Assembly (NCBI RefSeq): GCF_015706575.1
Contig: NW_024037060.1
Coordinates: 1,073,983-1,137,982 of the forward strand
Length of the DNA stretch: 64,000 bases
Direction of reading: 5' to 3'
DNA from: Patiria miniata
Lineage: Eukaryota
The notes below the pieces were generated by a model, which had not been told where the DNA came from, ran no database searches, and worked only from the letters and a program-made list of their open reading frames with translations. Of the stretch, positions 34,094 to 56,725 are shown in pieces (the first letter of the stretch is position 1; each line of letters opens with the position of its first letter). Made by a program: the position numbers and the translations under genes.

Positions 34094-34442
34094 ATCGAAA
34101 CCCTGACTAAGCCTGACTTGCTATTGCGGCTTAATTTCCTTTCCTTAAATTGATCTTTGTTTTGTTCCAGTAACCGGTTGTTTACATTTTAAAACTTTCT
34201 CCGATTCTTTCAGCTAAGTGACGTGCCATGCGTGTGGGTGGTAATCAGGTTATGAACTGCCCACCTCTTTCAAGGGTCCTGCAAAAAGGATGTGGCAGGC
34301 TGCAGGCAGAGGCAGTCGCTATGTCTTAATTAAAGTCACCCTTGCTGCATCTGGTGCAGATGTCCTGATAACCAACAAATCCCACACAGGTTGAGAGACC
34401 GCTAGTCACGACACTAGTTTGAATTGAACACATCAAGTAACC

Positions 34443-34713
34443 ATGGCAGAAACCGACGCCCTGTTGTCGTACGTAGCACCCAAGCATTCACACCCAAGCT
34501 TGACCAAATACGATACTGTCAATGGGGACCGTGACATCCTTAGTGCGGAGACCCCATCTCCTCTGACGAACAGCTTGAAGAATGAGAGGGGAAAGCCCAT
34601 GACAGGAGAACACGTGGTGTACAAAGCAAGGTGGTTCATTCTGGCCGTCTTCTCGCTACTTTGTATGTTGCAAGCAGCAGCGTCGAACGCATGGGGTCCC
34701 ATCGCAGACACAG
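34443..34713 (+). CDS. SLC49-family (DIRC2-like) paralog P3, exon 1/11
   Basis: aaccATGG; 90 aa + phase-1 G; MAETDALLSYVAPKHSHPSLTKYDTVNGDRDILSAE...RWFILAVFSLLCMLQAAASNAWGPIADT; GT at 34714. Confidence 0.8.
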
Positions 34714-35187
34714 GTTTGTCACACAATTTCACCAGTTTGTGCTGACAGGAGAGTTGTAACCAAGTCATTTTTGTCCTAGTCCAGTCAAGTCACAAGCCAT
34801 ATATTTTCAAGTCAAGTCTCAAGTCATTTTTTCCCAAGTAAAGTCAAGTCTCAAGTCAAAAAAGTAGCGACTTGAGTCCGACTCGAGTCCGAGTCAGCGA
34901 CTCGAGTTAACAACACTGGCTGACAGCGTTGGCAGAAAATGTCTGATCTAACCCAGTAACCGCAGAATCCTTCGTTACGGGATGTAAACATGTGCATAAT
35001 CCAAAATTCCTCTCTGACCCGTAAAAATAATTTGATTCCTTTTAATTCTAGGACCTACCTATAGATCTGGAATTATAATTTATATTTTGTACATAATATC
35101 AGATTTTCAATGTACATACTTATAATATAAGCTCCATTGATTGTAATGCATGATTTTAAACCTAATTCTTCATCATCTGATTTCTAG

Positions 35188-35298
35188 CCAAGGTTGTGTT
35201 GGACTGGACGGATGGTGACATAGCCCTGTTGGCCAACTGGGGTCCCATTACATTCGTAATCACCAGCTTTTTCTTTTCCTATCTACTTCTCATCAAAG
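35188..35298 (+). CDS. P3 exon 2/11
   Basis: 111 nt; AKVVLDWTDGDIALLANWGPITFVITSFFFSYLLLIK. Confidence 0.8.
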
Positions 35299-35745
35299 GT
35301 AAGAAATTGTCACACAATGATCTCATGGTTTTCATGTTGTGTTTTGTGAAATTTGTTTTTTTTTGAGAGCTACCTTGTGGGGTACTTGCACAAATGGAAC
35401 AATGGTGCCGTATTTGTGTCTGCCGGTTGTTGTCTAACGGTGCCCAGAAGGGAAATTCTAAAGAAGAAGAATAAGAGTAGAACAATGCAAGACCCATAAG
35501 CCTCATCTATAAGGTTGGGTGTAGGTGCAGGGGAGGGGGGGGGGTAGTTTGGGGCAGTATAAGGTGTTAACATCCCTCCCTCTTAAAACAGACAAAATTT
35601 GAATGGAAAAAAAAACGCACTTCCCTTTGAAAATAATTTTTAGAACACATGCTTTAAAGACATTAAATAGTGTTAACATGTTTTAAACTCACGGAAATAG
35701 TGCAAAATAATTCATCAGCTATCTGTTTCTTTTCGTGTCCTGCAG

Positions 35746-35836
35746 GTTTCAGGTTTTTCGTATTATGCAGTTCCTTGATCTTCCTATTGGGAGTCGCTAT
35801 ACGGTGCATTCCTGTCGGTGTAGAAAACGTGAAGTG
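35746..35836 (+). CDS. P3 exon 3/11
   Basis: 91 nt; GFRFFVLCSSLIFLLGVAIRCIPVGVENVKW. Confidence 0.8.
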
Positions 35837-36048
35837 GTAAGAAAAATTACGAAGGCACAGATTGATTAATTTTCTATTTTGTCTTATTAGCTTACTTAGG
35901 TGGGACTTGAACCCAGGACCTCCTGGACTAGTGCAGATGTCTCAACATGACTACGTTGTAGTACCATATTCAAACCATGGAATATTCATTGTCACATTGT
36001 AAATTGTCGTCTTCGATGATTAAATGTCTGTTTTGTGTTTTATCCAAG

Positions 36049-36249
36049 GACAATGAACGCTGGCCACGTTTTAATTGGCATAGCTGGTCCCGTTATGATG
36101 TCAGCACCAACTGAATTATCAGCGGTCTGGTTCCCGCCTCACCAACGGACTACGTCCACGGCCATTTCTATGACCTCAGCATTTTTTGGCATGTCCATGT
36201 CGTTTCTGGTGGGGCCATTAGTGGTCACAAGTCTTCCGCAAAATGCAAG
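36049..36249 (+). CDS. P3 exon 4/11
   Basis: 201 nt; homolog of P1 exon 4. Confidence 0.8.
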
Positions 36250-36509
36250 GTAGTAACCTTACCTATTTGGTTAGTTTCACGTTTGTTCTTGTTTTAGAGC
36301 AACTGATCTTTGGGAAGAGAACTAATTGAAATCAATTGTCTCTTTGCGACAATGGAAAAGAAGGTTTACTTTTGGTAAATTGAAGAATTATGAATTGTCA
36401 AAATGTTGTTCTTAAAAATATCGCTAAGCTGTTACCAAATAATGTTTTTCTTGAATTAACAAAAGAAAAAAAAAAATATTGCATTGTAACAGTGAATATT
36501 TGGTTTCAG

Positions 36510-36583
36510 TTCACATGCAGAATCCATAGACCCAAAGGAGAAAGCACTGTACTTCAATGAGATAATGAAGTTAATGTATATAG
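36510..36583 (+). CDS. P3 exon 5/11
   Basis: 74 nt; SSHAESIDPKEKALYFNEIMKLMYI. Confidence 0.75.
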
Positions 36584-37137
36584 GTATGTACAAACTATTG
36601 TCTTTCCAAAAAGTTACAGGGCTTAATGTTTTGGTCGTAGTAAAACTTCAGTTAAGGCAAACAGAATGTTGCCTGTAACAAAGGTCTAACTGTATTCCAC
36701 GTCACTCTAGTCAATAAGCAGTCTCCAACAATTTAGTCTTTTAAATATTCGTTGTCAGATTTGATTCCAAAAAGGGAGGCTTCGGGATTTGTTTTTAATT
36801 TTATTGAAGTTGAAAAAAAAAAACCATAAAAGACTTCCCTGAAAAGTCTTTTGACTGTTGAACCCACTGCTGTTCCGGATTTAAACCAGCCGGGCAACCT
36901 AACCAACCAAGGTGGTCGAGTGATTAAACATGATTGCGCTTTTAACCAAAATGTTGTTGGCTCAAGTCCCACCTGAACAAGCTTGAGGCTTTTATTTTCT
37001 GACTAGTTGCCAGACAGCGTTTAGTGTATATAAATTGCTGCGAGTGCCTATTAAATTACATTGGGGAAGGGTGAAACCTAATATAAACAATAGATATTAC
37101 ACACATTTGTATTATTTGTTTTCATTTGATGTTTCAG

Positions 37138-37267
37138 AATGTGGAGCTGTGGCCGTCGTGGTCATCGCGGCTCTATTGTACTTCCCTGAGAAGCCACCAA
37201 CCTCACCCAGCTTATCTGCCACCAAACCTCGGGAAAGCTTCAAAGATGGAGCCCTGAAGATGATCAA
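37138..37267 (+). CDS. P3 exon 6/11
   Basis: 130 nt; homolog of P1 exon 6. Confidence 0.8.
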
Positions 37268-37437
37268 GTTAGTCTTTAGACAACTGTCCAAAAATTGGAA
37301 GAAGAAAACTTAATTTTCAATTTTTTAAGAAACATGCTTTAATTCAATCAAGTGTCAACACGTATTAATCATAATCCTTAACTCTGAAACAGCTAAAGAT
37401 TAAAAGAGTCCCATTTTTGTTGAATATTTGGTTGAAG

Positions 37438-37549
37438 GAGCACCCATTTTTGGATTCCTGCGGCAGCCTACAGCATATCATCTGGAGTTTACGGTGGCTG
37501 GACCACGCAAATGGACACAATTTTCAAGACTACTCTGAATATAGGACAG
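37438..37549 (+). CDS. P3 exon 7/11
   Basis: 112 nt; KSTHFWIPAAAYSISSGVYGGWTTQMDTIFKTTLNIGQ. Confidence 0.7.
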
Positions 37550-37719
37550 GTAACAATCACAATATTCAAAATTATTTATAATTGCTGAAAGTTTTGTTTA
37601 GTACAAGTGCGGCACTGTCCAATATGCTATGCTAGTCTCTGTTGAGTTGTGCTTAGCTGTGTTGTGTGATTTAGCCATGTTAGCAGATGAATTTCTAATA
37701 TTTGGGTCATTTTTTTCAG

Positions 37720-37787
37720 GACACTGTTGGTTGGATTGGATTCATCTCCAATATTGCCGGGATGCTGGGAGGCTTGATAGTTGCAAG
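37720..37787 (+). CDS. P3 exon 8/11
   Basis: 68 nt; DTVGWIGFISNIAGMLGGLIVA. Confidence 0.8.
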
Positions 37788-38164
37788 GTGAGTGGTGCAA
37801 CAGTGTCACAAAAGTTTCACTTCAGTAGAAAAAATTGCTCCTCGTTGAGCTTTGGTCCCAATGGAGGATCAGGAGGGCGCTGGGGGGGGGGGGGGGCTTA
37901 GTCCCCTTAAACTCTCCAGTAAGGTGAAACAGTCTGGATCTTAAGCTCAGACATTTTGTAGTTTACATGTATGTGCCTGGGTTGGTCTACCTTTCCACTC
38001 CCCATTTTATAAAATGTACCAGTCCATTGACCTGTGTGGTTATATTAGGTGAGTGATAAGGCATACAGGATCACCAGGTCAGTGCCACGCTCACGTAGCT
38101 GGTCACACAGGGTGAAAGTTTTCCATTGAAAAAATCATGCATTCAGATGCTGATCTGGATCACT

Positions 38165-38400
38165 TCCAAATTATTTGGGGGGGGGGGCAAAAAAATGTTG
38201 GTCCCCAAAAAGTGGGTCCAAGAATATAACTCTGTGGGTTTTGGGGACCGCTTAAGGGACCGCCAAATTTTTTTTTTGATTCTAGTGGTGTGATCTGTGG
38301 TGCGATCTGAGGCAATTTTCTGACCACTTTGACCCAATTTTTTTGAGGAAAAGATGGTGGTGTACGCAGTGCCTGCCTTAATGACCCCCCCCCCGTACCA
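38165..38400. repeat. Internal fragment of MITE family A without TIRs (P3 intron 8)
   Basis: Matches the MITE-A core (GTGGGTCCAAGAATATAACT...GCGATCTGAGGCAATTTTCTGACCACTTTGACCC) but lacks both termini. Confidence 0.5.
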
Positions 38401-38539
38401 AGGACCACCCCTAAATGAGTGACGGCAGGAGTATGCCATCGAATAGTAAGACAATTCTTATTTGGCAATGCGTTTGACAAATTGCAGTCTTCACTCTTGT
38501 TAAATATTTTATCTCTCCTTGTTTTTGTGACTTCACCAG

Positions 38540-38658
38540 ACTTGTAGACATCCTAGGCGGTAGGATGAAGGCAGTATTGATTTCACTCACCATGGCAGCC
38601 TTCGTTAGCTGTGTATGGTATGTCCTACTCTCAATGAAGTATATCTCATATAGTTTAG
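38540..38658 (+). CDS. P3 exon 9/11
   Basis: 119 nt; RLVDILGGRMKAVLISLTMAAFVSCVWYVLLSMKYISYSL. Confidence 0.8.
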
Positions 38659-39032
38659 GTGAGTAACATGAGAAAGTGTCGAAAAAAATGTAATGCGCAC
38701 ATTTATTTTTATGTGTGTTGTTTGGGCTTCAACTTCAAGTTGAGATTATCTGAAAGATTGTGAAATTGAAGCAGATACGGGCAAATTTCTAACAGGGGTG
38801 CAGAGTTTCGAAAATTTTCAGGTTGTTTTATTTATCTTAAAAAGCTTCATAAGAAAATGTGAACACCCCTAATAAAAAAAAAATGAAATATGACAGTCAC
38901 CCAGGTTTTACAAATGTTTTAAGCTTATACCAGACAAACATTGCAAGTGTTTTCAATGTTTATTTTTGGGAATTGTTTATTGGACATTCACCTATATTTG
39001 ATTCTGTGATATGTGTTTCTCTTTGGTTACAG

Positions 39033-39215
39033 TGAGCGTCTACATTGCATGTATCTTCTTTGGACTTTTCATCAATGCCTCCTTCCCCATATACTTTGAG
39101 ATCACGGTCGAGGGCATGTATCCTGTCTCAGAAGGCAACATAACAATGGTGATGACATTCGTGACCAATGTGGTTTCTGTGATATTCCTGTTGCCGCCGA
39201 TGATTCCAAATCTAA
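39033..39215 (+). CDS. P3 exon 10/11
   Basis: 183 nt; ...EITVEGMYPVSEGNITMVMTFVTNVVSVIFLLPPMIPNL. Confidence 0.75.
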
Positions 39216-39392
39216 GTAAGTTCAAAATTCTGAAATAACTGAGGCTGCTACCACCGTCACAATGGACTCAGTGTGCAAACAAGAGAGGGCGCTTTTTCTA
39301 CCACTTTTGAGAGCCATGTGGACGGGAGACATCATGTGCCCGTTCTGGTTCATGCACCTGCAGCATGAAGGAGGCATGACTAGTTTTATTTT

Positions 39393-39670
39393 CAGGGGGT
39401 GAGCCAGAACACAATTTTTTTTGGGGGGGGGGCCAAAAAAATGTTGGTCCTCAAAAAGTGGGTCCAAGAATATAACTGCGTGGGTTTTGGGGTCCGCTTA
39501 AGGGCCCCCCCCCAAAAATTTTTTTTTTTGATTCTAGTGGTGTGATCTGTGGTGCGATCTGAGGCAATTTTCTGACCACTTTGACCCAATTTTTTTGAGG
39601 AAAAAATGGTGCTGTACGCAGTGCCTGCCTTTATGACCCCCATTGCCCCCCCCCCCTGGATCTGCCCTTG
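39393..39670. mobile_element. MITE family A copy (P3 intron 10)
   Basis: CAGGGGGTGAGCCAG...CTGGATCTGCCCTTG. Confidence 0.6.
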
Positions 39671-39943
39671 TTTATTTTGAATATGCATATAGCCATGTCA
39701 TCTCTCATGAGCCTCGGGCGTCTCTCCCAGTGGTCTCCCCCAACTCTGCCCTTCTTACCGTTGAGGGGGTACTTGTGCACAGAGCCCGTAGACTCGCCCA
39801 TTATGCCCTGCCCAATTTTGTTTCAACCAATCACAGCCTTGAAGTCTAGCAACAAGTCCAATAAGTGCTCAGCAAATTTTTGTGCTGAGTAGCTGTATGA
39901 AATTGTGTTGGTCATTGATATTTTCCTCCACGTTCGCCATCAG

Positions 39944-40068
39944 GTGTGATTTGGATGAACTGGCTCCTTCTAGGTTCAGTCTTTGTGTGCTTGCCTCTCC
40001 TCATGATGTATAAAGAGCATTATAATCGTCTGGATGAAGATATGACGGAAAGTATCCAGAGAGGATAA
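39944..40068 (+). CDS. P3 exon 11/11 (TAA 40066-40068)
   Basis: 125 nt; an extra A (GGAAAGT) relative to P1/P2 shifts the tail to ...EDMTESIQRG*. Total CDS 1485 nt, 494 aa. Confidence 0.75.
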
Positions 40069-41518
40069 CAAATGATATTGTCCTCTTCTAGGGCTAATTT
40101 CATATTTGATTATTCTAACTTGGACTTGATTGAATATTCAAATATATGAAATGCACCGATCAAAATTAACTGGCACTTGAATTATCATGTTTTTAATTCA
40201 TAATTTTCTCTCATTAACTAAGTTATGAACTTGCCAATGAGACGTTGCACACAAATCTTCAGACAGTATTAAGGTTAAGTTTGAATTGGAGTGACTTGCT
40301 CCAAGTTTTGACAGTTCTATATCCCCCTGGACTGTGTAGAGTACTAAGTGTAATACAGCATTATTACATTTAAAAAGTACAGTTTTTCCCCACAATAAGT
40401 GGGTATGTGGAAGACTGACGTACTAATTTTGAAACTCGTATTTGCTTGTATTCCCACATACTTCTCAACCAAGAAGTATTGAGGGCATTATTTCATTTAA
40501 TTGTTTATTTTTATAATTATTCACCGAAGTAAAATTAATTTTGTTTTAAAATCAACTAACTTGTAATTAATAGAATGTTTTGAAGCGTTAGGGTTGTAAA
40601 AGGAAAACGGTGCAAGACATGACTTTGACGGAATGCTTGCTTTAGAGAGACATAGATTGTAATTTTGCTTGAACACCTCTGCAAGTTTGTTGTATTGTTA
40701 TCTCACCAGCTCATGGAAAGCACTGAATATATAGTGAGTAAATAACAAAGATATTTAAACTTACAAGATATTTGCACAACGAAAGTGTTATTAATATTAA
40801 CATGCAACAAGTATCACTCAGGTCACCTGTAAAGTGAATAATTACATAATGTACATAGGTCTACATATTAATATTACAGGCAATGTTAACTTTTAATGAG
40901 GCTTCATCAATGCTATTGCATTTCCAATAATATTAAGAGGTGTTAAAGGCAGTGCTTATGTATCGAAGGTGGTTCGTTCTTAAATTTATACAAACTTAAA
41001 AAAAAAAAATTTCAACAATGTACATTGATAAAGATGATACTCGTTTTTCGTGTGTATAATGCTTGAAATTAGAAATGCTGGCATTTCTACCATGACTGTA
41101 AATTTGATTGGTATATTTTTTTAATTCAAAACAAATAGTCGACTTTTATCCAATTTCTCGTCACTCCAATCATGATTGATGCCTTATGCCGTTGAATTAA
41201 ACTTAACTTTTTTCTAGACGGTTTGACACAACTCTTGTAAATATGGGTAAAATGTTGGTGGTTTTTGTTAGAAGATTATTTGAGTGATGATTAATTGTAT
41301 TTCCTTTTGTAGTACGTATATGTGGCAATTATGGTGAAACTTCAAACCGATTGTTGCACTAAAACATTTTATAAAAATTTAATAGAAACCAAGTCTTTCA
41401 CATACTGCCATGCTTTATTTAAATGTCAGTTATTTTAAGGATAGTCATAAATTAACATGCGGTGGGCAGAAAAGTGATATTGTACTTTATTATTATATCA
41501 CAAATTTGACATAAGCCT

Positions 41519-42564: not shown

Positions 42565-44378
42565 ACTAACGCAGCCATTGTTTAATATAACAACAATTTA
42601 TAACATTTTTAAACACCTTGCAAAGCAATAATGCCGTACATTTTTTTTAGTATTGTGCTGGAGAATTTCACTTTATTTATTAAGTAAACGCTTCAGATTT
42701 CAAATATGCACTTGTTATTTTTCAAGGCTGGGTTGGGGCAAGGCTTTGAAATGATAAAGCAAATAATTCTGCGCAAAAAGTACTGCATTTATTAATGTTA
42801 ATCGCGAAAAATTAATATTAACAAAGTTCATAAAGTACAAATGATACCAGTTGGTATGAATAAAACATGGCCATTTGCTTTTACTACCAAAATTTCAGCA
42901 TATTGTACGCATCAGTTCTGTATGAGTGAAGTACAAATGATACCAGTTGGTATGAATAAAACATGGCCATTGCCAGTGCTTTTACTACCAAAATTTCAGC
43001 ATATTGTACGCATCAGTTCTGTATGAGTAAATTTAAATAAACGCTTTTAATGAAAACCATTTGCTAAAATCTGATTAGTTTGCTGCACTATAAGCGTTAC
43101 TTCGTTTCATACGAATAATAAAAAGGAGTATATATTTGCTGCAGAGTTCAACTAATATATTTCAAAGCTGTGGCTTCCTTGAAGATATAAAAGCAAATAC
43201 GTTTGCGCAAAAACTACTACGTTTAAAAATGTGGATCGCGAAAAATTAATATACAAAAGTTCATAAAGTACAAATATTACATAATACCATATATCGTATG
43301 AATAAATACTGGCATTTGCGTATGCACGCGCTGTCGCTCCTGATCGGATGAGCTATAGTACAGAATCGATTTAAACAAAAATGAACTCGATTTGTACTCC
43401 CAGTAATTATATACTGGAGCCAGTACCGAGTCCAAACCAACGAGTCCGTGCCAAAATTAGCACAAAGACTCGAGTACGGGCCGAGTCCAAATAATTTTCG
43501 AGCAGTCGGGCCGATAACTTTTGTGTAGTTCTCGAGTTGTACAACACTGCAAATTTTTGGCAACAACTTGACATTGAGCAATCTCACCCATTTAATAATG
43601 GGATGGTCCAACTATTAAAGATCAAGGCAAAGCCGGCCGGTCGCGCCACAGGCTAGGCAGCGCAGCACGTACGTACAGGCGCAGCTATATGTCAAAGTTT
43701 TCCGTCATTCAATTTTAGTTACTCTTTCCGCACATTGAACTAAAATAACTGCTAAATGTGTTTGTAACCAAAGCTTCGGCAAATACAATATCTTATTACG
43801 ATTACATGCAATTACTTGTGAAGGACGGTGGAATCGCAGGGCGGCCTCGGACTGGTTTTGTGCACCGGTACTCGGTAGGCCTACGTACTGCTGTTTAGCA
43901 TGTTTAGATGATGTGCTGTATATTCTGTACGAATCTCGTGATCCGGCCATTCAACTTTTTCAAGGCGATTGTGTAGGCCCTATAGACTATTTCATCATAG
44001 TAGTACCGGTACAGTGCAGTGTCCACCGGCCCCTCTATCTTTTGGTCCTTAGGACGACTGTGCCAACATGCACGCCTAGCATGTCTGACTAAGCCCGACT
44101 TGCTTGTGGCTTAATTTCCTTTCCTTAAATTGATCTTTGTTTTGTTCTAACTGATTGATTGTTTACATTTTAAAACTTTCTCCAATTCTTTCAGCTTAGT
44201 GATGTGCCATGCGTGTGGGTGGTAATCAGGTTATGAACAGCCCAGCTCTTTCAAGGGTCCTGCAAAAAGGATGTGGCAGGCTGCAGGCAGAGGCAGTCGC
44301 TATGTCTTAATTAAAGGCACCCTTGCTGCATCTGGTGCAGATGTCCTGATAACCAACAAATACCACATAGGTTGAGAA

Positions 44379-44586
44379 ACCCCCGGACAACTTGTGAATG
44401 GAACATCCTCCCACCAGACGTTAGAGCTCAACCTGACATCAAATAATTCAAAGAGAGACTGCATCAAATAAATATGGATGAGCTGGTCAAAAAAGCTCAT
44501 TACAAAATTTAATCACCACTGCCACACTGACCTATACGTTATACCACCATCTGCAGTGTTTGCATACTATCCAGCAGAAGCAGAAG
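44379..44586. other. 208-bp P4-specific insertion 48 bp upstream of the ATG
   Basis: P1-P3 read ggttgagagaccgctagtcacg; in P4 ggttgaga|aacccccggacaacttgtgaatgg...cagcagaagcagaaga|gaccgctagtcacg. Confidence 0.6.
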
Positions 44587-44633
44587 AGACCGCTAGTCAC
44601 GACACTTGTTTCAATTGAACGCATCAAGTGACC

Positions 44634-44897
44634 ATGGCAGAAACCGACACCTGTTGTCGAGTGTAGCATCCAAGGATTCACACCCAAGCTTGACCAAATA
44701 CGATACTGTCAATGGGGACATTCTAAGTGCGGAGACCCCATCTCCTGTGACGAACAGCTTGAAGAATGAGAGGGGAAAGCCCATGGCAGGAGAACACGTG
44801 GTGTACAAAAGAAGGTGGTTCATTCTGGCCGTCTTCTCGCTACTTTGTATGTTGCAAGCAGCAACGTGGAACACATGGGGTCCCATCGCAGACACAG
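44634..44897 (+). pseudogene. P4 exon 1, disrupted: canonical ATG 44634 followed by a 1-bp deletion and in-frame TAG (codon 11)
   Basis: gacgccctgttgtcg changed to gacacctgttgtcg; exon is 264 nt versus 265 in P1; downstream homology (SKDSHPSLTKYDTVNGDILSAE...WNTWGPIADT) continues in the +1 frame. The next in-frame Met is at ...GKPMAGEH... just before TM1. Confidence 0.55.
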
Positions 44898-45377
44898 GTT
44901 TGTCACACAATTTCACCAGTTTGTGCTGACAGGAGAGTTGTAACCAAGTCATTTTTGTCCTAGTCAAGTCAAAAGTCACAAGTCATATATTTTCAAGTCA
45001 AGTCAAGTCTCAAGTCATTTTTTCCAGAGTGAAGTCGTCTCAAGTCAAAAAAAGTAGCGACTTGAGTCCGACTCGAGTCCGAGTCAGCGACTCGAGTCAA
45101 CAACACTGGCTGACAGCGTTAGCAGAAAATGTCTGATCTAACCCAGTAACCGCAGAATCCTTCGTTACGGGATGTAAACATGTGCATAATCCAAAATTCC
45201 TCTCTAACCCGTAAAAATAATTTGATTCCTTTTAATTCTAGGACCTACCTATAGGTCTGGAATTATAATTTATATTTTGTACATAATATCAGATTTTCAG
45301 TGTACATACTTATAATAAAAGCTCCATTGATTGTAATGCATGATTTTAAACCTAATTCTTCATCATCTGATTTCTAG

Positions 45378-45488
45378 CCAAGGGTGTGTTAGACTGGACG
45401 GATGGTGACATAGCCCTGTTGGCCAACTGGGGTCCCATTACATTCGTAATCACCGGCTTTTTCTTTTCCTATCTACTTCTCATCAAAG
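45378..45488 (+). CDS. P4 exon 2/11 (gene possibly pseudogenic or N-truncated)
   Basis: 111 nt; AKGVLDWTDGDIALLANWGPITFVITGFFFSYLLLIK; AG/GT intact. Confidence 0.55.
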
Positions 45489-45940
45489 GTAAGAAATTGT
45501 CACACAATGATCTCATGGTTTTCATGTTGTGTTTTGTGAAATTTGTTGTTTTTATGAGAGCTACCTTGTGGGGTACTTGCACAAATGGAACAATGGTGCC
45601 GTATTTGTGTCTGCCGGTTGTTGTCTAACGGTGCCCAGAAGGGAAATTCTTAAGAAGAGGAATAAGACTGAGAAGAACAATGCAAGTACCAATAAGTCCC
45701 ATCCATAAGGTGAGGTGTTGGTGAAGGGGGGGGGGGGGGTAGTTTGGGGCAGTATAAGGTGTTGACATCCCTCCCTCCTAAAACAGACAAAATTTGAATG
45801 AACCAAAAAAAGTCTATTCGAAAATGATTATTAAAAAACATGCTGGTTTAAAAGACATTAAATGGTGTTAACATGTTTTAAACTCACGGAAATAGTGCAA
45901 AATTATTCATCAGCTATCTGTTTCTTTTCGTGTCCTGCAG

Positions 45941-46031
45941 GTCTCAGGTTTTGCGTATTATGCAGTTCCTTGATCTTCCTAATGGGAGTCGCTATACGGT
46001 GCATTCCTGTCGGTGTAGAAAACGTGAAGTG
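45941..46031 (+). CDS. P4 exon 3/11
   Basis: 91 nt; GLRFCVLCSSLIFLMGVAIRCIPVGVENVKW. Confidence 0.55.
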
Positions 46032-46325
46032 GTAAGAAAAATTACGAGGGCAAAAATAGATTATTTTTCTATTGTTTTTTTTTTTTATGAGGTGGAAATA
46101 GATTCTGTTTTGTCCGCGGGCTGCGAGAAACTAATCATTAGCTTACTTAGGTGGGACTTGAACCCACAACCGCCTGGACTAGTGTAGATGTCTCACCACT
46201 CTCCAGGATTGGCTGAGATGGTTATCTCAACATGACTAGTACTTATTAAAACCATGGAATATTCATTGTCACATTGTAAATTGTCGTCTTAGATGATTAA
46301 ATGCCTGTTTTGTGTTTTATCCAAG

Positions 46326-46526
46326 GACAATGAACGCTGGCCACGTTTTAATTGGCATAGCTGGTCCCGTTATGATGTCAGCACCAACTGAATTATCAGC
46401 GGTCTGGTTCCCGCCTCACCAACGGACTACCTCCACAGCCATTTCTTCTACCTCGGCATTTTTTGGCATGTCCATGTCGTTTCTGGTGGGGCCATTAGTG
46501 GTCACAAGTCTTCCGCAAAATGCAAG
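46326..46526 (+). CDS. P4 exon 4/11
   Basis: 201 nt; homolog of P1 exon 4. Confidence 0.55.
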
Positions 46527-46783
46527 GTAGTATTTTTTTAGTTGGTTAGTTTCAGGTTTGATCTTCTTTTTTAATGCAACTGATCTTTTGAAAGAGAACT
46601 AATTGAAATCAATTGTCTCTTTCGACAATGGAAAAGAAGGTTTACTTTTGGTAAATTGAAGAATTAAGAATTGTCAACCTATTCCTCTTAGTATCTCTAA
46701 ACTGTTGCCAAATAGTGTTTTTGTTGAATTAAAAAAAAGAAAAAAAAAGATATTGCATTGTAACAGTGAATATTTGGTTTCAG

Positions 46784-46857
46784 TTCAAATGCAGAATCCA
46801 TAGACCCAAAGGAGAAAGCACTGTACTTCAATGAGATAATGAAGTTAATGTATATAG
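46784..46857 (+). CDS. P4 exon 5/11
   Basis: 74 nt. Confidence 0.55.
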
Positions 46858-47392
46858 GTATGTACAAACTGTTGTCTTTCAAAAAAGTTACAGGGCTTAA
46901 TGTTTTGGTCGTAGTAAAACTTCAGTTAAGGCAAACAGAATGTTGCCTGTAACAAAGGTCTAACTGTATTCCAGTAAGTAAGCAGTCTGCAACAATTTAG
47001 TCTTTTAAATATTCGTTGTCAGATTTGATTTCAAAAAGGGAGGCTTCGGAATTTGTTTTTAATTTTATTGAAAGAAATCCATCAAAAACTTCTCTGAAAA
47101 GTCATTTGACTGTTGAACCCACTGCTGTTCCGGATTTAAACCAGCCGGGAAACCAAACCAACCAAGGTGGTCGAGTGATTAAACATGATTGTGCTTTTAA
47201 CCAAAATGTTGTTGGCTCAAGTCCCACCTGAGCAAGCTGGAGGCTTTTATTTTCTGACTAGTCGCCAGACAGTGTTTAGTGTATATAAATTGCTGCGAGT
47301 GCCTATTAAATTACATTGGGGAAGGGTGAAACCTAATATAAACAATAGATATTACACACATTTGTATTATTTGTTTTCATTTGATGTTTCAG

Positions 47393-47522
47393 AATGTGGA
47401 GCTGTGGCCGTCGTGGTCATCGCGGCTCTATTGTACTTCCCTGAGAAGCCACCAACCTCACCCAGCTTATCTGCCACCAAACCTCGGGAAAGCTTCAAAG
47501 ATGGAGCCCTGAAGATGATCAA
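47393..47522 (+). CDS. P4 exon 6/11
   Basis: 130 nt. Confidence 0.55.
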
Positions 47523-47692
47523 GTTAGTCTTTAGACAACTGTCCAAAAATTGAAAGAAGAAAACTTCATTTTCAATTTGTTAAGAAACATGCTTTAATTC
47601 AATCAAGTGTCAACACGTATTAATCATAATCCTTAACTCTGAAACAGCTAAAGATTAAAAAAGTCCCATTTTTGTTGAATATTTGATTAAAG

Positions 47693-47804
47693 GAGCACCC
47701 ATTTTTGGATTCCTGCGGCAGCCTACAGCATATCATCTGGAGTTTACGGTGGCTGGACCACGCAAATGGACACAATTTTCAAGACTACTCTGAATATAGG
47801 ACAG
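47693..47804 (+). CDS. P4 exon 7/11
   Basis: 112 nt. Confidence 0.5.
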
Positions 47805-47974
47805 GTAACAATCACAGTATTCAAAATTATTTATAATCACTGAAAGTTTTGTTTAGTACAAGTGCGGCACTGTCCAATATGCTATGCTATGTCTCTGTTG
47901 AGTTGTGCTTAGCTGTGTTGTGTGATTTAGCCATGTTAGCGGATGAATTTCTAATATTTGGGTGGTTTTTTCAG

Positions 47975-48042
47975 GACACTGTTGGTTGGATTGGATTCAT
48001 CTCCAATATTGCTGGGATGCTGGGAGGCTTGATAGTTGCAAG
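47975..48042 (+). CDS. P4 exon 8/11
   Basis: 68 nt. Confidence 0.55.
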
Positions 48043-48620
48043 GTGAGTGGTACAACATTGTCACAAAAATTTCACTTCAGTAGAAAAACATTGCTCCTCG
48101 TTTGAGCTTTGGTCCCAATGGAGGATCAAGGAGGGCGCTGGGGGGGGGGGGAAGGGGGGGGGGGCTTAGTCCCCTTAAACTCTCCAGTAAGGTGAAACAG
48201 TCTGGATCTTAAGCTCAGAATTTTTGTAGTTTACATGTATATGCCTGGGTTGGTCTACCTTTCCACTCCCCATTTTATAAAATGTACCAGTCCATTGACC
48301 TGTGTGGTTAGATTAGGTGGGTGATAAGGCATACAGGATCACCAGGTCAGTGCCACGCTCACGTAGCTGGTCACACAGGGTGAAAATTTTCCATATGGTG
48401 GGTGAAAAATCCTTGAAAAAAATCATGCATTCAGATGCTGATCTGGATCACTTCCAAATGAAATGATTCGTACTTGTACCAAGGACCACCCCTAAATGAG
48501 TGATGGCAGGAGTATGCCATCGAATAGTAAGACAATTCTTATTTGGCAATGCGTTTGACAAATTCCAGTCTTCACTCTTGTTAACTATTTTATCTCTCCT
48601 TGTTTTTGTGACTTCACCAG

Positions 48621-48739
48621 ACTTGTAGACATCCTTGGTGGTAGGATGAAGGCAGTATTGATTTCACTCACCCTGGCAGCCTTCGTTAGCTGTGTATGGT
48701 GTGTCCTACTCTCAATGAAGTATATCTCATACAGTTTAG
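48621..48739 (+). CDS. P4 exon 9/11
   Basis: 119 nt. Confidence 0.55.
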
Positions 48740-49065
48740 GTGAGTAACATGACACAATCTCGAAAAAAGTGTAATGCGCACATGTATTTTTTATGTGAGT
48801 CGTGTGGGCTTCAACTTCAAGTTGAGATTATCTGCAAGATTGTGAAATTGAAGCAGATACGGGCAAATTTCTAACAGGGGTACAGAGTACAATGTGAACA
48901 CCCCTAACAAAAAAAACCCGAAATATGACAGTCACCCAGGTTTTACAAATGTTTTAAGTTTGTACCAGACATACATGGCAACTTTTTACAATGTTTATTT
49001 TGGGGAATCGTTTATTGGACATTCACCTATATTTGATATGATGATTTGTGTCTCTTTGGTTGCAG

Positions 49066-49248
49066 TGAGCATCTACATTGCATGTATCTTCATTGGACTT
49101 TTCATCAACGCCTCCGTGCCCATATACTTTGAGATCACGGTCGAGGGCATGTATCCTGTCTCGGAAGGCAACATAACAATGGTACTGACATACCTGAACA
49201 ATGTGGCTGCTCTGATATTCCTGTTGCTGCCGATGATTCCAAATCTAA
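49066..49248 (+). CDS. P4 exon 10/11
   Basis: 183 nt; ...VPIYFEITVEGMYPVSEGNITMVLTYLNNVAALIFLLLPMIPNL (more diverged than P1-P3). Confidence 0.55.
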
Positions 49249-49413
49249 GTAAGTTCAAGATTCGGAAATAACTGAGGCTGCTACCACCGTCACAATGGGC
49301 TCAGTGCGCAAACAAGAGAGGTCAATATTTCTACCACTTTGGACGGAATACATCATGTGCCCGTACTGGTTCATGCACCTGCAGCATGAAGGAGGCATGA
49401 CTAGTTTTATTTT

Positions 49414-49731
49414 CAAGGGCTGATCCAGAACACAATTTTTTTTTTTGGGGGGGGGGGGGGAAACGGTGGTCCCCAAAAAGTGGGTCCAGGTAAATAACTG
49501 CGTGGGGTTCGGGGCCTGCTTAAGGGCCCCAAACATTTGTTGGATTCTAGTGGTGTGATATGTGGTGCGATCTGAGGCAATTTCTGACCACTTTAACCCA
49601 ATTTTTTTGAGGAAAAGAAGGTGGTGTGTGCAGTACCTGCCTTTATTGCGATGTTTGCCTTTTGCCGACGTTTTTAGTGCCTGCCTTTATGGCCCCTGTT
49701 GCCCCCCCCCCCCTTCCCGGATCTGCCCTTG
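49414..49731. mobile_element. MITE family A copy (P4 intron 10)
   Basis: CAAGGGCTGATCCAG...CCGGATCTGCCCTTG. Confidence 0.6.
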
Positions 49732-50007
49732 AATGTGCATATAGCCATGTCATCTTGCGCGAGCTTCAGGCGTCGGTAATGTGTTTGGAAGGCTTCCAGT
49801 GATCTCCCCAACTCTGCCCTTCTTACCGTTGAGGGGGTACTTGTGTACAGAGCCCCTCGACTGACCCATTAAGCCCCGCCCAATTTTGTTTCAACCAATC
49901 ACAGCCTTGAAGTCTAACGACAAGTCCAACAAGTCCTCGGCAAGTTGGTGTGATGAGTAGCTGTATGAAATTGGTTTGGTCATTGATATTTTCCGCTTTG
50001 TTCACAG

Positions 50008-50132
50008 GTGTGATTTGGATGAACTGGCTCCTTCTAGGTTCCGTCTTCGTGTGCTTGCCTCTCCTCATGATGTATAAGGAGCATTATAATCGTCTGGATG
50101 AAGATATGACGGAAAGTATCCAGAGAGGATAA
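50008..50132 (+). CDS. P4 exon 11/11 (TAA 50130-50132)
   Basis: 125 nt; tail ...MMYKEHYNRLDEDMTESIQRG*, the same as P3. Confidence 0.55.
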
Positions 50133-53100
50133 CAAATGATATTGTCCTCTTCTAGGGCTGTGCATGTTCAAATAATTTCATATTTGATTATTCTAACTTG
50201 GATTGATTGAATATTCAAATATTTGAAATGCACCGATCAAAATTAACAGCCACTTGAATTATCATGTTTTTAATTCATAATTTTCTCTCACTAAGTAAGT
50301 TATGAACTTGCCAATGAGACGTTGCACACAAATCTTCTGACAGTATTAAGGTTAAGTTTGAATTGGAGTGACTTGCTCCCAAGTTTTGACAGTTCTATAT
50401 CCCCCTGGACTGTGTAGAGTACTAAGTGTAATACAGCATTATTACATTTAAAAAGTACATTTTTCCCCCCACAATTAGTGGGTATGTGGAAGACTGACGT
50501 ACTAATTTTGAAACTCATATTTGCTTGTATTCCCACATACTTCTCAACCAAGAAGTATGAAGGCATTATTTTATATATTTTGATAATTATTCAATGAAGT
50601 GAGATTGATATTTGTTTTAATATCAACTAACTTGTAATTAATAGAATGTCTGTGAAGGGTTGGGTTTGTAAGAAAATAATATTTTATGTTATGAATATTA
50701 CATGAACACCTGTCCAAGTTTGTAGTATTGTTATCTCACAAGCTCTTGGAAAGCACTGAATATATAACAATTATATAACAATGATATTTAAAATTTCAAG
50801 ATATTTGCACATATCTACATCAAAGGTGTTATTGATCAAAGGTGTTATTGATATTTACATGTAACAACTATCACTCAGGACACCGGTAAAGTCAATACAA
50901 TTAATACACAATGTATATAGGTCCACATTTTTAATATTGCAATGAATGTTGACTTTTGTGGCTTCATATAGTATGCTACTGCATTTCCAATAATATAAGA
51001 AGGTGTTATAGGCAGTGATTACGTATCATAGGTGGTTCGTTCTAAAATTTTACACATTTATACAAACTTTTTATAATTTTTTTTCCAGCAATGTACATTG
51101 ATAAAGATGATACTCGTTTTTCATGTGTATAATGCTTGAAATTAGAAATGCTGGCATTTCTACCATGACTGTAAATTTAATTGGTATATTTTTTAAATTT
51201 AAAACAAATAGTCGACTTTTATCCAATTTCTCGTCACTCCAATCGTGATTGATGCCTTATGCCGTTGAATTTAATGTAAACTTTTCATTCTAGACGGTTT
51301 GACACAACTCATGTAAATACGGGTAAAATTTTGGTGGTTTTTGTTAGATGATTATTTGAGTTATGATTAATTGTATTTCCTTTTGTAGTACGTATATGTG
51401 GCAATTTTGGTGAAACTTCAAAACCGATTGTTGCACTAAAACATTTTTATAAAATATCAACTGGAAATCAAGTCTTTCACATACTGCCATGTTTTATTTA
51501 AATGTCAGTTATTTTGAGGATAGTCATAAATTAACATGAAATCATACGGTGGGCAGAAAAGTGATTGCACTTTATTATTATGTCAAAATTTGACATTAAC
51601 GTATCGGTTTTCTTTGAAACTGCCAGAGAAAAAGAAAGGAAATATTAAGATTCCATTCAAGTATGTGGACTAACAGCCATTTTTGAATCGTAGTGATAAA
51701 TTAATATTTATAACATTTTTAAACACCTTACAGTGCCTTAATACACATTTTTCTTAATTTGTGCTTGGAATTAAATCGATAAATCTCGAATAACAACTTC
51801 AACAGTAGCTGCATTTTCAACGCACTGTCTTAAGATTAAGAATCTTACGATTAACCACAACGGTACTAATTAAATACTAATTAAAGTTTGCATTGTTTGC
51901 AATCAACACATAGTTTGAACATAATAAATTCTTGGGAAAAATGTTGTATTCAATGTCTGCGTAAATATATTTTCACAAATCTTGAAAACATATTGACATC
52001 GATTAAAATTTAGGTTGCACAACACGGTTCTTGGAAGATTTAGTAATTGTAAACACATTAAAGTTACTCTCTTTAACAACTTCGATTTTGTTTTTTAAAA
52101 TAGAATTCATGTTTTAAATTAAAATAAAACTAACATTTTCTATTTTTCTTTTTCGACGACTGCAACCCTCCGATTTGTTTTTTTTTTCTTTTTGACTTTG
52201 GGTAGCTTTAGCTCTTAACGTACAAAAAAAATCCGGAAGAATTATTGTCAATCGCAAAAAAAAATCGAAATTTGTAAAGTAATTATTCCATAACACTACA
52301 CGTCAACTTGATATATTTTCGTTTGGTGTCTCATTCAAAAGTAAATAACTTTTGCATTTCCAGGAAAAGAGCAGTTTGAAATACAAATCTATTTTCTGGT
52401 CACAATGAACTCGAAAATGGCACGGGAAAGGTCATTTTGTCTTAAAATGAGACCATTATTTCAAAGGTATGACTAAATATAATACATGCATGTCAGTGCT
52501 TCAGCCTCCAAATTGTGTACATTAAGACAGTGCCAACCCATTTACAATGTGACATGACACTGCAAAAAGTTCCAGTGTGTTATATATAAGTTATAACTAT
52601 AACTTGGAAATCTGTATTATAAGTGCCAACAGTAAATTCAATGCTTAAAGGAAAGATTGAAGAGCGTCATATTCCCGACAAATAGGAAATTGAAATTGTC
52701 ACCGGCCCAAGTTTTATTTCAGTTATTGGTACCTTACCGCACCCATACAAAGGAAGACAAAAGTAGACGGAAAGGATTAAAGAAGATCGTCGAAGTTGAG
52801 TTATTTATTTTAGCCCTTCTTTTTTTTTCTTTTCTTTTTAAAGTACATGTAACATAAACTGCTGCCGAAAGGGCTTTATATAGTAAAAAGTTGTTTTGAA
52901 ATAGTGCCTTCATCATCAGGCGTCGTCTTCACCCAACTTTTCCGATTTTTTCACGGCTATTTTGCTAGTATGCTAATGTTTTGCACTCACTTTGGAAAAA
53001 TCCTGGCTTCAACTATGCTTATTATCAGTGGTGGAAGAATCGACATTTTTGTTATTTGTGATTATGTAGTAAAAACAGTAGCTGCAGCCTGAGTCAACAA

Positions 53101-53177: not shown

Positions 53178-53290
53178 TTACTCGTCCTTCGTGTCGAGAT
53201 TGAGCCGCTTATATTGCTCCTTGTACATCAAGAGGAGCGGGACGCAAATGACCACTGACCCAAGGAGCATCCAATTCATCCACACCACTC
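53178..53290 (-). CDS. P5 exon 11/11 (TAA = plus 53180-53178)
   Basis: 113 nt; GVVWMNWMLLGSVVICVPLLLMYKEQYKRLNLDTKDE*. Total CDS 1521 nt, 506 aa, all phases consistent. Confidence 0.7.
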
Positions 53291-53937
53291 CTAGAAGAAG
53301 AAAACACAACCGAAATTAATCAGTCACAATCCAGAACTTGTAGAAACTGCTGACATGCCTCCAGTTTTTTTTTTCGCCAAGTTTTATAGTAATGTTTTAC
53401 GCATAACGACCCGTCATAGTCATTCGCACTGAACAAGCATGGCCGGGGAGTGGCTTTTGGGGGTTCATTACCAACATATTACGCTTTTATTACCAACAGT
53501 GTACAAAATGATGTACAAAATGTAGTTTGCTTATAGGGCTGTAAAAATAAGAACGGAAGTAACAATTTATTGCACTTTTTACAAAAACGAAAATCACCTT
53601 CCTCTGACTGGCTCCGTTTTTGGTGTTCCGTTGTCCCGGTTACTGTGCTATGCCCCACATTTTGTAATAAGTATTTGGGGGGGGGGGAGACGAATATAGA
53701 TCCTCGAATCCTCAAATTGGCTCATAGCTAATGAAGCAGTAAAGGCCATGACAATGAGGAAAATGATAAGGTGCCTTGTTGCACTTGCAATCTTTAGGAA
53801 GAAATGAACAGTATTACGTGGAATAGACGCTCCCAAGAAGGCTTCGTCGCCGTGCCTGAGAATATTGCCTCGTGTGAATTGGTGTTTGTTAAAAAACAAA
53901 AGTCGTCGATGATATTGACAGTGTTTTGTTATTTTAC

Positions 53938-54120
53938 CTATGCCGTGTATCTGCGGTAGGAGCAGGAAGACCAGCACGCACACGTTGTTGAGCCACGTCA
54001 TCAGCATGGTGATGGTTCCCTCGGAGACGGGATACATGCCCTCTACCGTCACCTCGAAGTAGATGGGAATGGAGGCATTGATGAAGAAACCGATGATGAT
54101 ACAGGAGATGTACAGACTCG
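53938..54120 (-). CDS. P5 exon 10/11
   Basis: 183 nt; PSLYISCIIIGFFINASIPIYFEVTVEGMYPVSEGTITMLMTWLNNVCVLVFLLLPQIHGI. Confidence 0.7.
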
Positions 54121-54562
54121 CTACATGATCAAGAGAGAAAGAAATTTGATCACAATATCCACCCGTTTCTCTCGTTTCTCTGATATTATTTTTTCAATTC
54201 CTATTTTGTTTTCTCTCGCACTACAAAAGTCATTCACTTTAGAATGAGATAGCGAACGACAAAATCTGCCCACGCACGTTTAATTACCGTACAAAACGTG
54301 AGTTATTTGCGGCCCGATAATAAATCAGGAGGATTTTTTTGTGCGTTATATGAGTCGCAAAAGCAACCCCAAAATAAGTGTTGCAGACTGCCCCAAAGGA
54401 AACAAACATTGTCGAAATATAACAAAAGAATTGAAAACTCGTCGGGGAAATATAATTGTTTTTTTTTTTTTGGCAGGGCACGGGGCAAGTTTAAGTTCTC
54501 CAAGGAGGCATCGTACCCTCCTCCCAATTCGCCCTGGAAGTATATCAACTTGAGCTACTTAC

Positions 54563-54681
54563 GTAAGTTGAACGAGATGTAGGACATGGACAGCAGGACA
54601 CACCAGACACAACTACCGACCGAGCCAATCATCATCAAAATAAGAATCAACTTCATGCGACCTCCGAGGTAATCAACTAAC
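54563..54681 (-). CDS. P5 exon 9/11
   Basis: 119 nt; RLVDYLGGRMKLILILMMIGSVGSCVWCVLLSMSYISFNL. Confidence 0.7.
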
Positions 54682-54920
54682 CTGCCAATGGAACAAAGAA
54701 GATTTCAAAAATAGACGCATGGGTGATTTTTATTGTGAATTTGTACCAGATTTTTATTATGTAGTATAATTTTTCCCACCAATGATATGAAATATAGTAG
54801 CAGCCATAGTTTAAATAATGCAGTTTGTCTCAATTTTTGGAAATAATGAAGATATCTTGGACACGTTAAACGAATGTGTAACATTCAAAGGGCTCTTAAT
54901 ACCAATCTAGCAGCTCATAC

Positions 54921-56204: not shown

Positions 56205-56209
56205 CCTAC

Positions 56210-56277
56210 CTTGCGAAGGCCAATCCACCAGCAACCGCCGCCAGGTTTCCGATGAAGCCGATCCATCCAACCGTGTC
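56210..56277 (-). CDS. P5 exon 8/11
   Basis: 68 nt; DTVGWIGFIGNLAAVAGGLAFA. Confidence 0.7.
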
Positions 56278-56725
56278 CTGTCTCAAAAGTAGACTAAATT
56301 ATTATCCTAAATAATTATCTTTAATATCTAACAAATTTCCGTTCAGTTTTGATCCTTGCAGAACCTAGGATCGAAACGTAGGCCGTTTAATTTTGTTTGA
56401 TTTGTACACGTACATGTATCTCAGAGCAGTCAGGGCAAAATTCAATGGTGCAAAATTCAATGGCGCAAAAACTTCATCAAAAATCCTTCATAATTCCATC
56501 CAAAGTTCCAAACACGTCCCTAAATTACAACTTCGCCATCAGCATACAATTACTGGTGGAATTTTAATGAGACTGGCGTTGTACCAAAATGACTCGAATT
56601 TGAGAGTGTCTCATCCGAAAACGGACGGCTGTTCACGACTACGGCCATCAAATTAGCCACAAATTTTCCGATTCTGACAATGCCAGATATTTAAGAAAGT
56701 AAATTCTATCAAAATGCATACCGAC

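Follow-up and report, generated by a model that had tools for sequence, protein, structure and literature searches.

The 3'-most of four tandem SLC49A4/DIRC2-like transporter genes in the bat star, Patiria miniata, carries an ORF-disrupting mutation relative to its paralogs and to the orthologue in Acanthaster planci, in the form of a 1-bp deletion in exon 1 that places a TAG at codon 11. Among the lesions claimed for this gene (P4), the frameshift alone is exceptional and is a real lesion; P4 is otherwise not decaying and is the most ancestral-like copy of the array. The explanation that we tentatively prefer, at somewhat less than an even chance, is that P4 is a very recent null or hypomorph, whether a nascent unprocessed pseudogene or an allele that is still segregating.

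The SLC49A4-type gene array

The window, the whole 64,000-nt stretch of contig NW_024037060.1 that was analysed, contains four tandem 11-exon SLC49A4/DIRC2-like genes on the plus strand, located as follows:

2150-9806, plus strand: P1, 11-exon model built here
23354-29136, plus strand: P2, 11-exon model built here
34443-40075, plus strand: P3, 11-exon model built here
44634-50139, plus strand: P4, 11-exon model built here

Translated, the models of P1, P2, and P3 match exactly the RefSeq proteins XP_038058424.1 (494 aa), XP_038058425.1 (485 aa), and XP_038058418-421 (494 aa), respectively. A fifth intact 11-exon gene, P5, is on the minus strand (~60272-53181), adjoins P4, and is the orthologue of A. 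planci P0005; the Patiria protein P0125 was considered as a possible product of P5, and mapping gave no match. In A. planci (locus L001), a plus-strand gene encoding the orthologue P0003 (484 aa) is followed by its head-to-tail neighbour P0005 on the minus strand, much as P4 and P5 are arranged in Patiria. The P0003 gene has the same 11-exon structure, with shared exon sizes of 111, 91, 201, 130, 112, 68, 119, and 183, and differs in being the only copy, in contrast to the Patiria array of four, in having no frameshift, and in lacking a methionine at the position of P4 Met52. Because A. planci has just one plus-strand gene before P0005, the four-fold array is specific to the Patiria lineage, with P4 the copy in the position beside P5.

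The body of P4 consists of the following segments:

44783-44897, plus strand: exon-1 part of the RefSeq P4 coding sequence, starting at Met52 (cccATGg), then TM1 and the WNTWGP motif
45378-45488, 45941-46031, 46326-46526, 46784-46857, 47393-47522, plus strand: P4 exons 2-6
47693-47804, 47975-48042, 48621-48739, 49066-49248, 50008-50139, plus strand: P4 exons 7-11

Every P4 junction is AG/GT and the frame is open through exons 2-11, with 442 codons from Met52 and a TAA stop codon ~10 nt before 50139, the end homologous to the P1 stop. An earlier reading of this DNA from its sequence only had described exons 2-11 and all of the splice sites as intact, and they are. The Met52-frame translation is identical to RefSeq XP_038058426.1, a 442 aa protein named "SLC49A4-like", and the RefSeq status of the locus is protein-coding, not pseudogene.

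A protein search with the P4 body returned first P. miniata proteins that are named "solute carrier family 49 member 4 homolog" and are 92-94% identical to it, and then SLC49A4/DIRC2 homologues of other echinoderms, molluscs, and vertebrates; at least 100 of the best matches, from echinoderms to vertebrates, are named SLC49A4 or DIRC2. Structures of FLVCR1/2 match P4 only at E ~1e-20, and the nearest named relatives are SLC49A4/DIRC2, not FLVCR1/2 or MFSD7. The Pfam MFS_1 domain (PF07690) is found in the Met52 product at 76 bits (cut-off 33.4), covering profile positions 3-345 of 347, a span as in P1. In a word-indexed protein search, the 88-aa peptide of exon 1 gave no match, and a full-length query was required. 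Judged by these matches, P4 is an SLC49A4/DIRC2-type MFS transporter gene, the 3'-most in the Patiria miniata tandem array. Human DIRC2/SLC49A4 is likewise an MFS transporter of the SLC49 family, and the P4 body is 38-40% identical to vertebrate SLC49A4 proteins. The human protein is a lysosomal H+-driven pyridoxine exporter, with lysosomal membrane localisation and pyridoxine export established for human DIRC2 only (PMC9719028); the sea-star genes differ in forming a lineage-specific tandem array, and their substrate and localisation are putative.

The frameshift in exon 1 and the upstream differences

In an alignment of the paralogs, P1-P3 read ATGGCAGAAACCGACGCCCTG where P4, whose canonical ATG is at 44634, reads ATGGCAGAAACCGACACCTG. 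The lesion combines a G>A substitution at 44649 with a CCC run shortened by one C, and leaves the following features:

44634-44666, plus strand: residual canonical ORF, with a strong-context ATG (gaccATGg), 10 codons (MAETDTCCRV), and TAG
44646-44653, plus strand: lesion site, with GACACCTG replacing GACGCCCTG between D5 and L7 of E3-T-D-A-L7-L8
44651-44782, plus strand: former N-tail coding sequence, with the homologous frame open and no AUG able to reach it

The frame from the P4 ATG terminates at the TAG at 44664-44666, and the homologous frame, open from 44651 through all 11 exons, is out of register with it, just as had been proposed. We sought an upstream AUG in the homologous frame and found the frame closed by a TAG at 44594-44596; an in-frame AUG farther upstream (44474), within the insertion described below, ends after 12 codons. 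The site is undeleted and in frame in P1-P3 and in A. planci, and because the A. planci orthologue reads ATGGCAGAAACCGACCCCTTG, the undeleted, in-frame reading is ancestral. The N-tails of P1-P3 differ by indels of 33 bp and 6 bp, both divisible by 3, and the N-tail is therefore coding in the sister copies. The P4 frameshift is the sole singleton 1-bp indel in the exons of the four copies (~5.9 kb), and 33 are present in the non-coding alignment.

The deletion falls within a putative sorting signal. P1-P3 start M-A-E3-T-D-A-L7-L8, corresponding to a [DE]xxxL[LI] motif, and the missing base in P4 is between D5 and L7. N-terminal counterparts are present in Acanthaster (MAETDPLV), Asterias (MADRDSLL), P5 (DTRPLL), and vertebrates (EREPLL), and the strict motif occurs in 63 of 100 homologue N-tails, where shuffling predicts 5.7, and in 27 of the 30 closest homologues, which are mostly from echinoderms; the other 37 homologues, such as Mytilus proteins with 18-aa N-tails, do not have it. 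Lysosomal targeting of human DIRC2 requires E10RQPL14L15, and an LL>AA mutant is found at the plasma membrane with pyridoxine transport kept (PMC9719028). The human element and E3TDAL7L8 of P1-P3 are both N-terminal cytosolic [DE]xxxLL motifs ahead of TM1, whereas P4 as assembled cannot put the motif on any AUG-initiated product. Because translation cannot enter the homologous frame from any AUG ahead of Met52, any P4 protein would be without the dileucine signal, and the Met52 product has an N-tail of 6-12 residues with no dileucine motif. The N-terminus had been viewed as the most variable part of the family, and overall it is variable, but the deletion is within its one conserved element and is not readily dismissed as a change in merely variable sequence with a harmless rescue downstream.

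Two further lesions had been proposed, an insertion and a promoter-motif mutation, and correspond to these features:

44200-44208, plus strand: mutated 9-mer, TGATGTGCC in place of TGACGTGCC in P1-P3, with C>T at 44203 in a CpG
44375-44584, plus strand: P4-only insertion in the 5' flank or leader, 210 nt, with a 3-nt AGA microhomology at the junction

The insertion is indeed present only in P4, although it measures 210 nt and ends 49 nt upstream of the ATG rather than 208 nt and 48 nt as reported, and its placement is ambiguous by the 3-nt AGA microhomology. A sensitive blastn search of the window and the A. planci locus found no further copy, repeat and inverted-repeat searches found no terminal inverted repeats, and Rfam and tRNA scans gave no match; all of these searches for a transposon origin were negative. 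If transcribed, the insertion carries potential upstream AUGs at 44398, 44474, and 44478. Indels of at least 100 nt are common between the paralogs (intron 1 of P2, intron 8 of P3, and intron 10 of P1), and the insertion is anonymous and without demonstrable effect.

P1-P3 each have a single upstream occurrence of the 9-mer TGACGTGCC, and the change to TGATGTGCC in P4 is a CpG>TpG transition, so that this part of the earlier description stands. Its role as a promoter motif is unsupported; TGACGTG was not found upstream of the A. planci orthologue (three matches elsewhere in the A. planci locus are at chance level). Conservation of the 9-mer is limited to recent duplicates that are 93-99% identical, and the surrounding P4-unique divergence is 4-8%, at which a single substitution in the 9-mer is expected ~30-50% of the time. 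With the 9-mer change being a CpG transition at this level of divergence, and the insertion having no demonstrable effect, the proposed three independent lesions are reduced to the frameshift only. A conserved uORF starting from an ATG beside the 9-mer was also considered and rejected, as a 2-bp insertion in P2 shifts its frame.

Constraint and gene conversion in the P4 body

Exon 10 has the most P4-unique residues of all the exons, and in this sense was correctly identified as the most diverged. This is not a sign of decay, as polarisation with the Acanthaster CDS shows that six of these residues (L, Y, N, A, A, L) are ancestral and that the derived states at the same sites (M, F, T, V, S, and V) are the ones common to P1-P3. 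P4 itself has three derived replacements, L>M, V>I, and P or F>V, all of them conservative. From Met52 onward, the P4 protein is the closest of the four copies to all eight outgroups tested; its identity is 92.4% to the Patiria paralog XP_038058623.1 (89.0-89.9% for P1-P3) and 80.9% to Acanthaster (77.9-79.1% for P1-P3).

Pairwise dN/dS is 0.42-0.60 for P4, no higher than the 0.59-1.02 seen among P1-P3; low counts and gene conversion made this measure uninformative, and outgroup-polarised branch counts were used in its place. The nonsynonymous to synonymous counts on the terminal branches are 3-4:2-5 for P4, 5-7:1 for P1, 7:1 for P2, and 9-10:0-1 for P3, with 9:3 on the P1-3 stem. Comparison of P4 with pooled P1-3 gives a Fisher p between 0.013 and 0.135, the value varying with the assignment of ambiguous sites. 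Relaxed constraint is not evident in P4, which has the lowest ratio of the four and no further lesion, in a comparison of low power in which half of the gene is converted.

The frequency of P4-unique substitutions varies sharply along the gene, from 0.6-1.4% in introns 1 and 5-8 to 5.9-9.0% in introns 2-4, 9, and 10 (chi-square 102.6, 9 df, p = 5e-18); pooled, the intron differences are 0.8% in the homogenised parts and 7.6% elsewhere. Tract boundaries were placed by sliding window:

44726-45629, unstranded: recently homogenised tract, ~0.7% P4-unique, starting ~75 nt downstream of the frameshift
45630-46773, unstranded: old unconverted tract, introns 2-4 and exons 3-4, 6-8% P4-unique
46774-48741, unstranded: second homogenised tract, exons 5-9 and introns 5-8, ~1% or fewer P4-unique
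48742-50074, unstranded: old unconverted tract, intron 9, exon 10, intron 10, and the 5' part of exon 11, 7-9% P4-unique, with ancestral residues kept

P4 is thus a gene-conversion mosaic, a feature missed in the earlier reading, in which exchange with the sister copies has homogenised roughly half of the sequence, and because of this homogenisation the intactness of the converted half is uninformative on selection. The 5' flank up to ~44725 is an old tract as well and contains the frameshift, which a slightly longer conversion tract would have repaired or spread. The unconverted exons (545 nt) have 5-7 P4-derived changes and no indels, compared with a P4-unique divergence of 7.6% in the flanking introns, where indel events number 9.7 per kb; neutrality predicts ~1.6-2.1 indels in these exons on the P4 share of the branch, such that finding none is only mildly unlikely (p = 0.12-0.21). 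CYP21A1P/CYP21A2 is an example of an unprocessed pseudogene exchanging sequence by gene conversion in a tandem array, and P4 is likewise a tandem duplicate with a coding frameshift, a conversion mosaic with functional neighbours, and retained introns and splice sites. Unlike pseudogenes of this type, it has just one lesion, constraint on it shows no sign of relaxation, and by sequence it is the most ancestral member of its array.

In the array as a whole, P1-P3 have neutral-like or higher nonsynonymous to synonymous ratios and a burst of exon 10 replacements, P4 is conservative, and conversion is pervasive. The most radical changes are in P3, where the conserved ATWNTWGP motif has become AASNAWGP.

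Translation from Met52 and the explanations of the frameshift

Rescue by initiation at a methionine just before TM1 had been suggested, and is possible. The in-frame Met at 44783, in KPMAGEHVVYK, opens the 442 codons of the RefSeq product, and is preceded by three out-of-frame AUGs that the earlier reading had also missed, the canonical AUG at 44634 and those at 44712 and 44766:

44712-44726, plus strand: out-of-frame AUG, 4-codon mini-ORF (MGTF, then a stop)
44766-44768, plus strand: out-of-frame AUG with A at -3, 48-codon ORF overlapping the Met52 start and continuing into exon 2

The Met52 AUG itself has a C at -3. Ready access by scanning would call for a good context and for freedom from strong or overlapping upstream AUGs, and the P4 leader offers neither; given the AUG order on a transcript that starts upstream of them, the 442-aa product should be scarce. 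Met52 is an internal residue in other Patiria paralogs and is absent in Acanthaster (…KQEGAQHEAY…) and Asterias, and by this comparison is Patiria-specific and not a conserved alternative start. Downstream reinitiation following AUG-proximal stops is well established. Stop codons close to the AUG reportedly evade NMD to a substantial degree (PMC3273812), and AUG-proximal nonsense and frameshift alleles with downstream reinitiation can escape NMD and give N-truncated proteins (PMC3273812, PMC10275272). P4 resembles such alleles in having a stop at codon 11 and an in-frame AUG 117 nt later, and differs in having two intervening out-of-frame AUGs, one of them overlapping the rescue AUG.

If P4 is a very recent null or hypomorph, purifying selection would have acted on the transporter body for most of its history, with gene conversion recently overwriting part of it. 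As assembled, the G>A change and the deletion, which affect codons 6-7 and so the conserved N-terminal dileucine signal for lysosomal sorting (ETDALL), uncouple the strong-context AUG from the transporter ORF, with a stop at codon 11. Scanning ribosomes would yield a 10-residue peptide from the canonical AUG, and would initiate at Met52 only via reinitiation or leakage past the two further out-of-frame AUGs, giving at most little 442-aa transporter, without the lysosomal signal. The frameshift would have to be very recent because the body was long under purifying selection and has no further decay. The sequence shows the lesion, the intact body, the ancestral character of P4, the conversion mosaic, the conservation of the motif, and the arrangement of AUGs; from these we infer that the deletion is real, that translation from Met52 is inefficient, and that function or localisation is lost. 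The initial proposal of a young pseudogene or N-truncated copy is upheld in that the ORF is cut and a truncated product is possible, and a pseudogene, if that is what it is, would have to be very young; the signs of decay put forward for it are not supported. Several observations sit less comfortably with a recent null. The frameshift is in an old unconverted tract, and its youth follows solely from the lack of further decay; the strongest constraint signal of the four copies is in P4, which suits a functional gene equally well, and the locus is annotated as protein-coding.

The missing base also raises the prospect, possible if on the unlikely side, that the deletion is an assembly or consensus artefact or is one haplotype of a heterozygous site, with the true P4 reading GACACCCTG and encoding ~493 aa (MAETDTLLSSVASKD...) with E3xxxL7L8 intact. 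With one C put back, the full-length ORF runs without interruption and includes the dileucine motif, conservation is in other respects better in P4 than in any other copy, and a lost C in a C homopolymer is a classic error type. The Pmin_3.0 assembly (GCA_015706575.1) was generated from 125x PacBio Sequel data from one male, presumably heterozygous, using Canu with default parameters and with no polishing mentioned (PMC13317027), and one exon indel in ~5.9 kb is compatible with an error rate of ~0.1-0.2 per kb. Nonetheless, the CCC run is just 3 nt long, the site is amid genuine P4-specific substitutions including the adjacent G>A, and the RefSeq model has neither a LOW QUALITY PROTEIN flag nor a corrected frameshift. 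Exon indels are also ten-fold rarer than intron indels, and because there is one exonic singleton and 33 non-coding ones, most indels at the locus are real and filtered by selection rather than random errors. Older decay fits the data least well. An old pseudogene that seems intact through repeated gene-conversion repair from P1-P3 would account for homogenisation of about half of P4, but we consider it very improbable, as the unconverted exons 3, 4, 10, and part of 11 have no stop or indel where neutrality would predict ~1.6-2.1 of the latter (a mildly unlikely absence), their substitutions are several-fold below those of the flanking introns, and they keep ancestral residues with the three conservative replacements.

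A functional P4, making the 442-aa protein from Met52, is rather unlikely. Such a protein, having lost the dileucine signal, would not be sorted to the lysosome and, by analogy with the DIRC2 LL>AA mutant, would work at the plasma membrane, which would be sub- or neofunctionalisation via a start shift. The Met52 ORF is intact over the whole MFS_1 domain and is the product annotated by RefSeq, P4 has the lowest nonsynonymous to synonymous ratio and the most ancestral sequence, and the frameshift, being in an old unconverted tract, is possibly old. More than a third of the homologues (37 of 100) do without the strict motif, AUG-proximal stops reportedly evade NMD (PMC3273812), and human DIRC2-AA at the plasma membrane still transports pyridoxine (PMC9719028). 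Set against this are the three out-of-frame AUGs before Met52, one strong and one overlapping, the C at -3, and the restriction of Met52 to Patiria. Retargeting is further complicated by the conserved C-terminal YNRL (YxxPhi-like), which is kept in P4; relocation is plausible rather than certain, because this signal might still direct endolysosomal sorting. A Met52-initiated P4 product would resemble the engineered DIRC2-AA (PMC9719028, after Savalas et al. 2011), in which the transporter body is present and the dileucine signal is disabled, although DIRC2-AA is a point mutant expressed from a strong promoter, whereas P4 would lose the whole 51-residue N-tail, start at a poorly placed AUG, and keep YNRL. 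That P4 is a naturally retargeted SLC49A4, in which dileucine loss and a Met52 start would turn a lysosomal exporter into a plasma-membrane importer and a natural counterpart of DIRC2-AA, we regard as quite improbable.

We return to a very recent null or hypomorph as the tentatively preferred explanation. A single 5' frameshift in one copy of a young tandem array is in itself a routine case, and the shortened protein is already in RefSeq; it provides an example of how a "-like" N-truncated annotation can mask a probable null or an assembly error, and of how comparison of paralogs without an outgroup mistakes ancestral states for decay. The P4 lesion removes exactly the dileucine signal and, if the gene is expressed, would be a natural experiment in the retargeting of a lysosomal transporter. 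For transporter evolution, the whole array may outweigh the frameshift in interest.

The 5' ends of the four tandem copies

The four plus-strand, 11-exon SLC49A4/DIRC2-like genes (P1 to P4) share a block of ~160 nt 5' of the ATG that is 97-99% identical across the four copies, above the identity of the flanking sequence:
~1933-2095, plus strand, upstream conserved block of P1
23146-23300 (approximate), plus strand, upstream conserved block of P2
~34228-34390, plus strand, upstream conserved block of P3
44209-44370, plus strand, upstream conserved block of P4

The block includes several ATGs, and is preceded by a polypyrimidine tract and CAG (…CTCCAATTCTTTCAG|CTCAGTGACGTGCC), which resembles a splice acceptor. 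It is a candidate promoter, 5'UTR exon or conversion tract. Further out, ~500 nt before the ATG (43988-44148 versus ~34000-34100), P1, P2 and P4 are almost identical to one another whereas P3 mismatches them at 52-54 of 150 aligned positions, and the distal 5' flank of P3 is therefore different. P3, for which RefSeq has four transcript isoforms, also departs from the family in exon 1 (34674-34703), where the family-wide motif at the end of TM1, ATWNTWGP, has become AASNAWGP through T>A, W>S and T>A, the most radical changes among all four copies.

Introns and dispersed repeats

Directly 3' of exon 1 all four copies conserve a low-complexity array of AAGTCA-type units followed by CGACTCGAGTC repeats; in P4 intron 1 it occupies 44945-45098, with periods of 7 and 32. 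Intron 10 of every paralog contains a dispersed repeat of ~240 nt (79-88% identity), probably a SINE- or MITE-like element, that is also found in intergenic DNA and on both strands:
49414-49654, copy in the P4 intron
6824-7066, further copy
15868-16047, further copy
20681-20906, further copy
28504-28694, further copy
38171-38379, further copy
39393-39634, further copy
8637-8726, minus strand, further copy
8810-8991, minus strand, further copy

Intron 10 of P1 (6647-9675) is 3029 nt long, as against 683-759 nt in P2 to P4, and its additional DNA contains internally repeated segments and copies of this repeat.

The minus-strand neighbour

A fifth gene in the window, P5, is intact and SLC49A4-like:
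~53181-60272, minus strand, P5, 11 exons

It has its own N-terminal dileucine motif, DTRPLL, and is the orthologue of P0005, one of two SLC49A4-like genes at a single Acanthaster planci locus; P5 and P4 (P0003 in Acanthaster) lie tail-to-tail, with synteny conserved between the species. P5 was not found among the named Patiria matches from the protein search. One of its introns holds a self-overlapping inverted repeat (54946-56166) of ~1 kb and 81% identity, in which 54946-55992 pairs with 56166-55119.

Divergence of the coding sequences

Two coding segments distinguish the copies:
9780-9806, plus strand, end of exon 11, P1
29110-29136, plus strand, end of exon 11, P2
40048-40075, plus strand, end of exon 11, P3
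50112-50139, plus strand, end of exon 11, P4
6464-6646, plus strand, exon 10, P1
28140-28322, plus strand, exon 10, P2
39033-39215, plus strand, exon 10, P3
49066-49248, plus strand, exon 10, P4

An A run in exon 11 varies by 1 bp (GGAAGT or GGAAAGT), with the result that the P1 and P2 proteins end in ...TEVSREDNK* and those of P3 and P4 in ...TESIQRG*. The Acanthaster C-terminus reads …MESSIQN*, which supports the P3/P4 frame as the ancestral one; P1 and P2 thus bear a C-terminal frameshift, which is tolerated.

Six amino-acid replacements that P1 to P3 have in common, all derived, cluster within ten codons of exon 10 (MVLTYLNNVAAL > MVMTFLTNVVSV). Nonsynonymous changes outnumber synonymous ones by ~5-10:1 on the terminal branches of P1 to P3, polarised by the outgroup, an excess above neutrality that is not significant (binomial p = 0.14). 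This ratio and the exon 10 cluster together suggest that the young copies P1 to P3 are under relaxed or diversifying selection, while P4 remains ancestral.
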